Of a stretch of 64,000 nt of DNA, positions 15,001-18,000 are shown in pieces (positions within the stretch are counted from its first letter, which is position 1; each line of letters begins with the position of its first letter). The position numbers are program-made. The DNA is from a bacterium. Its GTDB lineage: Bacteria; UBA8248. The stretch is taken from contig OZ242260.1 in the NCBI GenBank assembly GCA_965207065.1, forward strand, positions 1,184,001 through 1,248,000, given 5' to 3'.

Positions 15001-18000
15001 AAAATGCGCGGCCCGTCCCTGCCGTGCAGGAAGGCCGGAGGATCCCGCCGGACATATTGCGTATATTATTATATACACATACTAAATCACCTGTTATTTA
15101 CTAATTATATATTAAAGTATATTGATTCCTTCGCGCCGCCTGTCGTAATCTAATCGTATATTCAATTTTGTTTGCGTCCATGTCACGCCCGATTTTGATC
15201 GGGAAACAAAACAAAGCATCTCGTCCACGCCTCGATGAGGCCGGGTGTCGGCGCGAGCGAACCTCCCCATCGCGCGCCCCCCCGGCGCAGACGGACCAAG
15301 ACACGAGGTCAATCCCGACCGAAGAGGGAGGGATTGCATGAGAGAAAAATCTACACACCGGAGGACCTGCGATGAATTTTCCAAGACGAATCCTGTTGGC
15401 GGTATGTATTCTGGCCCTGGCCGGCGTATTGGCCGCCGCGCCCGCCGCCTTCGCGCAGGAGTGCCCGCGCGGACCCGGCGTCCCGGAATTGCCGACCCCG
15501 AGCGTGACGGCCGCCGAAGTGGTTGCGGACCCCTCCAAACTGAAGGACTTCGCCCTGGCGGCGTTAAGCGCCACGACGGCTCCCTCAAGGAGCATCGATG
15601 AGGCGTCGTACATCGCATGCCTGTTCAGGCTCAGAGGGGGGCCTTTCTTTTCCGGCTCCACCTATACCGTCACCCTGACGCTCGACGGCAGGGTGTGGAT
15701 CAACACGAACGACATGTCGACGGGAGGCCGACCGCTCAACCCCGCGATTTATGTAGCGATCCTCCACGGGCTGGGAATCGATGTCACCAGCCAGGACGCC
15801 ATAAAAGCCGGTCTGGGGAGCGTGGCCGCAACGGGAACCTTCCCGAACCCGGAAGGCGGCGCATTCAATGCAGTTCCATTCGGCTTTCCGGGCGCATCCG
15901 GCTACGCCGTCGGATACATCGCCCCCCTTACCCGAGCCCCATCCATCCTGCTGGTCGGCTTCGATATCCAGGAATCTCACCTCGCGCAGGAAGCCATCGA
16001 CTCCGGTACGCCATCGATTACGGCCGCTGATGTCACCAACCGCGCAACCTTGAAGCAATTCGTCGATGAAGCGGCGGATTTCGTGAAGACCCTCTCCGCC
16101 AGTGGAGACATCTCCGCCGCTTCGAAAATAAGGGTCGCCTTCCGGGACCCGAACGGCCCCTGGAGGCATGGACCCACCTATCTCTTCATCATGCAGCGCA
16201 CCGGCTACACGCTCTTTCACGGCGCGTTCCCGGACAGGTTCGAACTTCAGATCCCCACGAATACCTTGAGGGACGAGCGCACCGGAGAGCTCATTCTGCC
16301 GCAAATCATCCAGACGGCGACGGCGGCGGGAGAGGGCGGCGATTACGTGGAGTATTATTTCGACAATCCCGACGACCCCACCGACGACTTCAACACTCTC
16401 AAGGTGAGCTATGTGCGCGAGTACGCAGCGCGAGTCCCATTGCCGGATGGAACCTTTTACGAGGATAGGCTCATCATCGGCGCGGGCATTTACGGGGACG
16501 AGGGCGCGGTGTCGGAGGAGAGTTTGGCGGCGACAAGTGGCTGGCTGGCGCGCTTCGGCCGCGCGGTGGGAAGCCAGGCGGTGGACATGATATCGAGCCG
16601 CCTGAACGCGCCCGCTCCGGGCGGAGCGAAGATGACCCTCGGCGGCCAGACCGTGAAGCTCGATGCGGATCCGGACAGCTACCTGACGGAACAAGGCGCG
16701 GATTTCGGGTTCGCCTCCCTCGCGCATCAAGGAATCGACCCCCGCAGCATCGCGCGGGCAAGAACTGCGAATCGGCTTACAAATGGGGAGGAGGATTCCA
16801 CAGACTCCTACCGCGAGATGACGATGAGCCAGCTTCTCTCGGGCGCTACGTTCCATCTCTCCTCGACCAAAGAAGCCGCGGAGGCGGCGGGCAGCCAGTG
16901 GTCGATATGGGGCCGCGGCGCGAGTAGTTCGTTCGAGGGCGGCGGCGACGCCGCTATCGAGGGCGACGTGACGACGGCCATGCTGGGCGTGGACTACGAG
17001 AAGGGCAAGCTGCTTGCGGGCGTGGCGCTATCGCGTTCGAGCGGCGACGGCGGCTTCGAGAACGGGGACCGCAGCGAGCTGGAAGCGACCCTCACGAGCG
17101 TGCATCCCTACTTCCGCTACGCGGCGAGCGAGCGGCTCTCGTTGTGGGGAATCCTGGGCATGGGCCAGGGCGATATGACGCTCGACGAGCGTGATCAGAA
17201 GCACGAGACCGACATCGATATGCGCATGGGCGCGTTCGGGATTCGCGGCGCGCTCACGAAAATGGGCGGATTCGACCTGGCGGTCAAATCCGACGTCCTC
17301 CTCACGCAGATGGACTCGGACGCGAAGGACGGGCTCGAGGCCATCTCGGCGGAGTCGAGCCGTCTCAGGGTGATGCTCGAGGCCTCGCGCGAAGTCGCCA
17401 TGGAGGGCGGCGGTACGTTCCGGCCCTCAGTCGAAGCGGGCCTGCGCCACGACGGAGGCGACGTGGACGAGGGGCTGGGCGTCGAAGTCGGCGGCAGCAT
17501 TCGCTTCACGAATCCGGGTATGGGACTGACGTTCGAGGTGAATGCGCGGGGTCTCATCACCCACGAGGAAGAAGACGTTAGCGACTGGGGCGTGGGCGGC
17601 ATGATCCGCATCGCCCGGGGCAAGTCGGGCCGGGGCCTCGCGTTCACCGTCCAGCCCGCCGTGGGCGAGACCGCAGGCGGCGCGGCGCGCCTGTGGGGCA
17701 TCAAGGACGCCTCGCGTCTGGCGCGAGAGGAAATCGAGGACCTCGACCCCCGCGTCCGCGCGGAGGTGGGCTACGGCCTGGACGCCTGGGGCGGCCTGCT
17801 GACGCCTTACACAAGCCTCTCGGTGTCCGAGGGTGGAAACGGCGCCTACCGCGTGGGCGGACGCTTCCGGATGGGCGAGCGCCTGAGCATGAGTCTCGAG
17901 GGCGACGTGCGCGAGCGCGTGAACGCCGACCCGGTTCACGGCGTGGCCCTTCGCGGTTCGCTGCGCTGGTAGAACAGAAGGGAAATTCCGCAGGGGCCGT

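Follow-up and report, generated by a model that had tools for sequence, protein, structure and literature searches.

What does a chemoreceptor-type sensor domain do when it is joined to an export barrel? Apart from SMP_2, Cache domains are described as identified solely in proteins that also have an output signalling domain (PMC4822843), and a 2026 estimate counts more than 90% of them as fused (PMC12889525); stand-alone forms are known and are termed atypical (PMC549065, PMC12889525). The question arises from a single gene, encoding P0001, in a window of 64,000 nucleotides (contig OZ242260.1, positions 1,184,001 to 1,248,000) of a UBA8248 bacterium. The genome-wide survey's note had read the product as a signal peptide, a tandem Cache unit and an autotransporter-type barrel, and had placed the family in sponge symbionts.

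Architecture of P0001

The gene proved to be real, with an intact 866-aa open reading frame, and hydropathy showed a sole hydrophobic segment, at the N-terminus, ending A-F-A at residues 26-28. The features of the gene are as follows:

15360..15364, + strand, GGAGG ribosome-binding site by sequence reading, with the ATG 7 nt downstream
15372..17972, + strand, whole gene of P0001, 866 aa, open reading frame intact
15372..15455, + strand, Sec-type signal peptide, residues 1-28, by sequence and hydropathy, probably cleaved after AFA
15456..15986, + strand, lobe A, residues 29-205, a diverged copy of lobe B by homology and model
15987..16505, + strand, lobe B, residues 206-378, sCache_2-like by structure matches and pocket alignment
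16515..16607, + strand, predicted pore-spanning linker helix, residues 382-412, from the model; the alignment with NalP, Hbp and AIDA-I begins here
16614..16886, + strand, variable low-confidence segment, residues 415-505 (pLDDT <50 for 415-492), with a conserved end motif in the consensus
16896..17612, + strand, 12-strand autotransporter-like core, residues 509-747, by structural alignment
17634..17969, + strand, C-terminal extension, residues 755-866, with six predicted amphipathic strands and Trp as last residue (model, block pLDDT 35-74)

These features confirm an architecture of a signal peptide, two related lobes (A and B) and an autotransporter-type barrel, without a signalling part. 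By hydropathy and Pfam, P0001 lacks the flanking transmembrane helix pair, the HAMP domain and the output domain of sCache_2 receptors and kinases. As the survey's note had reported, the Pfam evidence was weak: dCache_2 scored 20.6 bits against a cut-off of 26.5, the cut-offs of PF17200 and PF08269 were not reached, and the barrel had no match to PF03797. A chemoreceptor fragment or split gene was rejected because the reading frame is intact and the host genome (G000, 96% complete) has no match to MCP or CheW. A heme Cache was likewise rejected, since P0001 has no CXXCH motif. In two RNA runs (X17 and X19), just minor parts of the gene are present, as contigs over the barrel part, which gives no evidence for its expression.

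The passenger was modelled with confidence by AlphaFold (residues 29-378, pLDDT 91.6, pTM 0.89), as had been claimed, and consists of two lobes with equal helix and strand order; the full-length model is middling (pLDDT 75.5, pTM 0.50). When the Foldseek search was repeated with the passenger model, the top 10 rows were again all Cache sensor domains (best E 4.0e-5). A wide structural search with this model ranked Adeh_3718 (4K08; Z 15.4, rmsd 2.9, 134 aligned), a Vibrio parahaemolyticus sensor (4EXO; Z 14.9) and TlpB (3UB6; Z 13.0) first, and over the sCache_2 sensors compared, including PscD (5G4Y; PF17200), lobe B gave Z 13.0-15.4 with 132-135 residues aligned. Unlike this structural likeness, identity to these sensors is 19-23% and the Pfam scores stay below cut-off. 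Searching solved structures by sequence with the AB unit returned noise only, and the sequence link of lobe B to 4K08 and 5G4Y was made through a relative; multi-repeat relatives exceed the Pfam Cache cut-offs on summed scores. Computation on the model thus shows lobe B to be sCache_2-like.

All structural matches, including those to double-Cache proteins, are confined to lobe B (model residues 192-350). Lobe A was related to lobe B by hhalign (99.2%, first 75 columns), and its likeness to Cache comes from this homology and from the shared helix and strand order, without a structural match of lobe A itself. The tandem Cache unit of the survey's note is therefore likely and half shown, because structure matches cover lobe B only and lobe A is homologous to B. 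Lobe A also has conserved Cys31 and Cys83, which likely form a disulfide. The arrangement recalls dCache_2 (PF08269), described as a duplication of sCache_2 (PMC4822843), in having two sCache_2-related lobes in tandem with a weak Pfam match; unlike dCache_2, each lobe has its own N-terminal helices, as beads in series, and there is no signalling fusion.

The barrel was compared with known type Va autotransporters (NalP, Hbp, AIDA-I, EstA and BrkA; PF03797). The helix and 12-strand core matched NalP, Hbp and AIDA-I with Z 25.3-25.7 (NalP 1UYO: Z 25.7, rmsd 2.5 A, 256 aligned), and Foldseek found BrkA with E 2.6e-8. P0001 shares with these proteins the order of signal peptide, passenger, pore helix and 12-strand core, and with EstA a globular passenger. 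It differs from them in about 90 extra residues between the helix and strand 1 and in a conserved stretch of about 115 residues, predicted to form six further strands and ending in an aromatic, after strand 12, where classical autotransporters stop. The barrel is thus of autotransporter type, as proposed, but not a classical one. On a sequence reading, the extra strands alternate as membrane strands do. The extension is present in 98% of 183 barrels, with a terminal W or F in 163, in a set chosen for near-full coverage, and PF03797 matches in relatives end about 140-170 residues short of the C-terminus; at least 25 of 42 barrel relatives pass PF03797. The model closes the barrel at 12 strands; coevolution (183 barrels, a shallow alignment with Neff80 91) put the closure pairs no higher than background and did not separate a 12-strand barrel with an appendage from a single 18-strand barrel, and profile comparison aligned the extension in register with strands 8-11, weakly (probability 6-15%). 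Type V barrels of 8, 12 or 16 strands are listed in a review (PMC6555100). From this architecture, we consider it likely that Sec would export P0001, that BAM would insert its barrel and that the two-lobe passenger would pass to the cell surface.

The ligand pocket of lobe B

In PscD, propionate is held by Tyr90, His103, Tyr143 and Lys156 between Trp92 and Trp145 (PMC5062169). To map the pocket, a relative was aligned by sequence with 4K08 and 5G4Y, and the positions are those of this alignment and not of superposed coordinates. The predicted pocket of lobe B comprises Y270, F272, H283, Y328, F330 and K344, and lobe B also has a conserved acidic loop (D331-D338), so that lobe B has by alignment the four carboxylate-binding residues and the two sandwiching aromatics of sCache_2 sensors. 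Of 213 distinct B lobes preceded by an A lobe, 207 have the full Y/H/[YF]/K set, and its columns are among the most conserved there; of 104 other B lobes, 44 have it. Of 219 A lobes, one has it, in an alignment to the lobe-B model where just 80 rows have a residue in each of the four columns. In lobe A, the first Tyr is kept and the His usually so (Asn111 in P0001), and the second Tyr and the Lys are gone. Read from these alignments, the full ligand pocket appears to be retained by one lobe of the two, B, with half of it lost from lobe A. Such a diverged partner lobe sets P0001 apart from sCache_2 sensors; lobe A may serve lobe B as a structural partner, or may bind a different ligand.

We conclude that lobe B probably binds a carboxylate through Y270, H283, Y328 and K344, between F272 and F330. 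At the specificity position, His goes with acetate- or pyruvate-type ligands and Leu with L-lactate (PMC12415202), and lobe B has His, not Leu. The size of the ligand is not predicted beyond 'a carboxylate', because Atu0646 uses an identical Y/H/K set to bind C4-dicarboxylates (PMC13702588). The predicted lining is smaller than that of PscD, with F/Y, F, L and I/V in place of W92, W145, F126 and M129.

Conservation of the pocket also bears on whether the unit needs a ligand at all. In comparisons with three close relatives, dN/dS was 0.12-0.39 for lobe B and the barrel, and 1.22, 0.91 and 0.48 for lobe A, the first two values resting on very few changes. Values near 1 in the two closest comparisons, together with the loss of half of the lobe-A pocket, would suit a stable fold that serves as a ligand-free bead on the surface; we regard this as very improbable, since the four pocket residues of lobe B persist in nearly all B-after-A lobes at identities down to about 40%.

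Homologues, export tails and distribution

Searches with the AB unit (E<=1e-3) returned 1050 near-length, 314 shorter and 15 longer homologues, of which the 120, 120 and 15 listed were inspected. These 255 listed matches and the proteins of further searches made up 342 distinct lobe-bearing proteins, to which export tags were assigned by our own motif rules. A barrel is present in 103, a T9SS-type tail in 36 (8 Bacteroidota-type and 28 FlgD/T9SS-like), a lipoprotein signal in 34, a signal peptide only in 31, a C-terminal membrane tail with a weak JDVT-CTERM match in 3, and two other types in 7 each; 88 are fragments or frameshifted and were left unclassified. A further 33 end in a short TWGxIK tail, a putative sorting signal. 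Both T9SS-tailed examples tried exceeded the cut-off of TIGR04183, the type A C-terminal sorting domain (P0038, 34.5 bits; P0079, 45.1 bits), and a PorV-family gene adjoins the FlgD-tailed copy at locus L071. In precomputed Pfam results for the 255 listed homologues, no HAMP, MCP, kinase or cyclase family was found. Hydrophobicity of at least 1.6 after the Cache lobes occurs in 7 of the 342, in four at 10-11 residues before the C-terminus and in three inside extracellular-type tails. The central statement of the survey's note, that a sensor fold recurs on autotransporter-type and T9SS-type tails, with no transmembrane or signalling domain and under several phylum labels, is thus borne out.

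Other parts of that description needed correction. Proteins contain up to 6 AB units, above the 1-5 repeats given before. P0109, the named protein from Bryobacterales, contains six lobes but ends without a tail, and the five named proteins from Caldilineaceae are lipoproteins; the common property is therefore a location outside the cytoplasm and not always export to the surface. Among the matches listed, source labels were Nitrospinae, Gemmatimonadota, Bacteroidota, Chloroflexi/Caldilineaceae, Bryobacterales, Zixibacteria and Tectomicrobia, and the nearest named relatives are labelled Nitrospinae/Nitrospinaceae (P0013, 90%; L006, 72%). A representative search with an 838-position profile gave 5067 clusters at E<=1e-30, which is not a size for the Cache family because the profile includes barrel columns and so mixes barrel and Cache relatives. 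A single-protein scan of genome contigs found 4 loci. No relative was found in IMG/VR, nor in 72,556 plasmids for either part.

The signal-only and lipoprotein forms, 65 of the 342, would also suit a Cache unit that works in the periplasm (in monoderms, on the membrane) and delivers its ligand to another protein, a receptor or a transporter. A relay of this kind has been proposed for stand-alone Cache proteins, which are described next to ion-channel genes (PMC549065), and G000 also encodes a 160-aa protein with a signal peptide and an sCache_2 domain. Such a relay is nevertheless improbable for this family: a linker helix that aligns with the pore helix of NalP, Hbp and AIDA-I and the T9SS sorting domains would put the unit beyond the outer membrane, no receptor is a conserved neighbour, and the genus is without chemoreceptors (MCP signalling domain in 0 of 23 genus genomes versus 11 of 28 other genomes of the phylum).

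To follow the tails across the family, we built a FastTree phylogeny of 123 units with ten tags, with FastTree support only; P0012, a frameshifted fragment, is wrongly tagged CTERM in it (2 of 123 rows). The tags required 47 label changes, against a minimum of 9 and a shuffled mean of 68.6, and the starred branches force at least 17 changes for the barrel tag. Identity between units that bear different tails reaches 92% (FlgD-type versus TWGxIK) and 87.5% (FlgD-type versus barrel). Because tags interleave on the tree and near-identical units bear different tails, export tails appear to have been swapped repeatedly on the AB unit, although metagenome chimeras could mimic some of the swaps.

The barrel in turn carries other passengers. 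It occurs four times in the host genome, and that of P0001 is 42-52% identical to its three paralogues. The SWM repeats (in the paralogue that passes PF03797) and the SRCR passenger (with cadherin-like and Calx-beta domains) named before were found again; the third has no Pfam match, and its passenger is a putative hydrolase. Elsewhere in the genus, 17 of 22 genomes have the barrel, against 0 of 19 from other genera of the family and 3 of 9 additional genomes of the phylum. Of 74 non-Cache proteins with this barrel, 42 were scanned, and 37 of these had fibronectin-III, cadherin, Ig, Calx-beta, PKD or LRR domains above cut-off.

Such adhesin-type company raises the alternative that P0001 is itself an adhesin, with a tethered carboxylate as ligand (sponge-matrix glycans that are pyruvylated or contain uronic acids, or the surface of a neighbour) and with repeats that would add avidity. 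The arrays of up to six units would fit this, as would Ig-like spacers of about 217 aa, which in some members hold the Cache units away from the barrel. Pyruvylated and uronic sugars are reported in sponge glyconectin glycans (PMC7828597), and Cache domains, enriched in sponge archaea, have been proposed there for possible surface recognition (PMC7848895). Yet a back wall and bulky residues shut the solved sCache_2 pocket, the pocket is undiversified among AB repeats, and the signal-only forms have no visible anchor. We therefore hold an adhesive role to be rather unlikely.

The distribution given before was reproduced: of the 22 other genomes in the genus, 12 have the AB unit (11 as a strong match and one as a divergent tail-less form), against 0 of 28 other genomes of the class/phylum. 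The unit is also present in 26 of 33 genomes of a second class. In relatives, the Cache gene comes after a block near the ATP synthase genes; G000 has about 68 kb of extra DNA in between, and the left of the window is therefore an insertion. The gene itself is not cargo of this adjacent island, because relatives that lack the island keep it in place.

The neighbours of the Cache gene vary by lineage, and no transporter or receptor is conserved across lineages; a nearby ABC peptide-type transporter is conserved within the genus only. A PLP decarboxylase (69-88% identical) is the one neighbour that recurs across lineages, adjacent or one gene away in three lineages (L008, L033, L034, L036, L063, L102, L103, L109, L116 and L118) and often accompanied by a PhyH dioxygenase. 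This neighbour, with near-invariant polar residues outside the pocket (R224, R258, E291, D331, D338, H203 and D198), brings up an enzyme that turns over a carboxylate-bearing small molecule at a site between the lobes, which could work in any extracytoplasmic location. Against it, the structural matches are all binding domains, long tandem arrays suit binding, the decarboxylase lies apart from the gene in G000, and several decarboxylase loci are syntenic copies of one. An enzymatic unit is, on balance, quite improbable.

In four DNA runs that carry the label 'sponge metagenome', each from a different study, 0.41-0.42 of the words of the gene are present (the best-holding runs have coded labels), and in one sponge run a contig over the Cache part differs at 48 of 1246 bases. 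A JGI scan found 34 loci with 9 assembly prefixes, and the bin prefixes of two named homologues appear among sponge-associated Poribacteria bins (PMC7883664). A sponge habitat is thus supported for close relatives of P0001 only; the wider claim of a family common to sponge symbionts, not shown for most homologues, is reduced to a plausible restriction to sponges.

A proposed role at the envelope

Because the protein has no transducer, the genus has no chemoreceptors and the pocket is of a conserved PscD type, we read P0001 as a binder without signalling. Our preferred reading, put forward tentatively and at somewhat under even chances, is an exported, membrane-anchored protein that captures or buffers a diffusible small carboxylic acid at the envelope; display and carboxylate binding are better supported than this physiological role. 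In this model, the capture or buffering would be done by lobe B inside the sponge and would serve uptake of the acid or its removal, and AB repeats would add binding capacity. Capture would also be workable for lipoprotein and signal-only forms. The unit would move between co-living lineages and acquire the export tag of each new host.

P0001 would then be autotransporter-like in its working and probably sCache_2-like in its binding, departing from each family in a defining feature. Stand-alone Cache proteins (of Rhodopseudomonas, PMC549065; sCache_heme, PMC12889525; SMP_2, PMC4822843) similarly have the fold without an output domain and are a precedent for non-signalling use; unlike P0001, none is described on an autotransporter barrel or T9SS sorting domain in the available text of these papers. 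In the literature searched, taken without supplements, we found neither a Cache passenger on an autotransporter or a T9SS tail nor a P0001-type barrel described; the architecture tables of Cache surveys could include some.

Sponge symbionts are described as sharing adhesion and eukaryote-like proteins laterally (PMC8163846). Those proteins resemble this family in their spread across phyla, and the barrel carries fibronectin-III, cadherin, LRR and SRCR domains; unlike them, the passenger of P0001 has the fold of a bacterial sensor for small molecules. The same study, which covers about 1200 sponge MAGs, reports few secretion systems to account for the export of eukaryote-like proteins, and its main text contains neither 'autotransporter' nor 'Cache'. 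In the consulted part of another sponge survey, the inverse autotransporter is the sole mention (PMC10947273). A poorly annotated barrel family that carries eukaryote-like domains bears on this open export question. A bolder proposal, which we regard as doubtful, is that sponge symbionts of many phyla use an enlarged, 18-strand barrel of autotransporter type to export their adhesion and eukaryote-like proteins in general, and have turned a chemoreceptor carboxylate sensor into a laterally traded surface receptor for a sponge-derived carboxylate, be it a free metabolite or a pyruvylated glycan. This would make the unit a host-recognition module of a new class and the barrel a new type V subtype.

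Two further observations weigh against a carboxylate buffer: no transporter is a conserved neighbour across lineages, and a stoichiometric binder beyond the outer membrane offers no obvious gain for porin-permeable acids. A large family that keeps its pocket and has outer-membrane export tags, in hosts without chemoreceptors, represents a different use of the Cache fold. Relatives in many lineages with different export tags point to an undescribed extracellular binding role, and the ligand would name a molecule of concern to many sponge symbionts.

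Repeat number and C-terminal tails

Paired tandem Cache autotransporter genes were found in three loci, and the numbers of two-lobed Cache units in the two genes of a pair were unequal (2 + 3 in both L029 and L030, against 1 with at least 3 in L038). This pattern shows local duplication and expansion of the repeats. The 1410-aa protein P0235 has a SPOR peptidoglycan-binding domain after its enlarged barrel, a position that fits a periplasmic C-terminus past the last extra strand. In addition, 33 proteins (within P0291-P0398) carry a short tail at the C-terminus whose last residues read T-W-G-Q-I/L-K-S-R-F or something similar. 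It appears to be a sorting motif specific to the lineage; the one example scanned had no NCBIfam match. Three more conserved C-terminal tail families, of approximately 150 and 240-500 aa, are candidate unrecognised export or anchoring domains, and the examples scanned matched neither Pfam nor NCBIfam.

Tail family 1: P0053, P0057, P0103, P0112, P0114, P0133, P0372
Tail family 2: P0020, P0083, P0137
Tail family 3: P0047, P0139, P0143

DNA flanking the Cache gene

Approximately 68 kb of the host genome (C1:1130975-1198866) is missing at the same place in the relatives represented by L030 and L038, and its right end lies in the window. This extra DNA includes, within window 1-14866, a VRR-NUC gene (weak match) and an ORF that we take to be Ssb-like. 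Short repeated intergenic elements lie on both sides of the Cache gene, with 48 (left) and 121 (right) matches across the genome; one contig of a sponge run links both flanks across the gene by a short overlap.

1-14866, right end of the extra DNA
8564-10411, 615-aa ORF without family, upstream of the Slam-like gene, within the extra DNA
10576-12090, Slam-like outer-membrane gene (SlipAM above cut-off), within the extra DNA
14740-14790, left intergenic element
18105-18145, right intergenic element

Gene neighbours, a transport fusion and a stand-alone sCache_2 protein

A PLP-dependent group II decarboxylase adjoins Cache-unit genes, or lies one gene off, in three lineages (loci L008, L033, L034, L036, L063, L102, L103, L109, L116 and L118), often accompanied by a PhyH dioxygenase. 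The host genome carries two tandem decarboxylase copies of this type away from the Cache gene, at C1:713-717 kb. The sole fusion seen tying the Cache module to transport joins a four-lobe Cache array to a solute-binding domain. The host genome, which is without chemoreceptors, also encodes a stand-alone sCache_2 protein, whose gene is convergent with a second gene that appears Slam-like by eye.

L059:5728-8919, fusion of the four-lobe Cache array with a solute-binding domain of ABC-type family 5
L037:7208-7690 (C1:595207-595689 of the host genome), 160-aa stand-alone protein, signal peptide plus sCache_2
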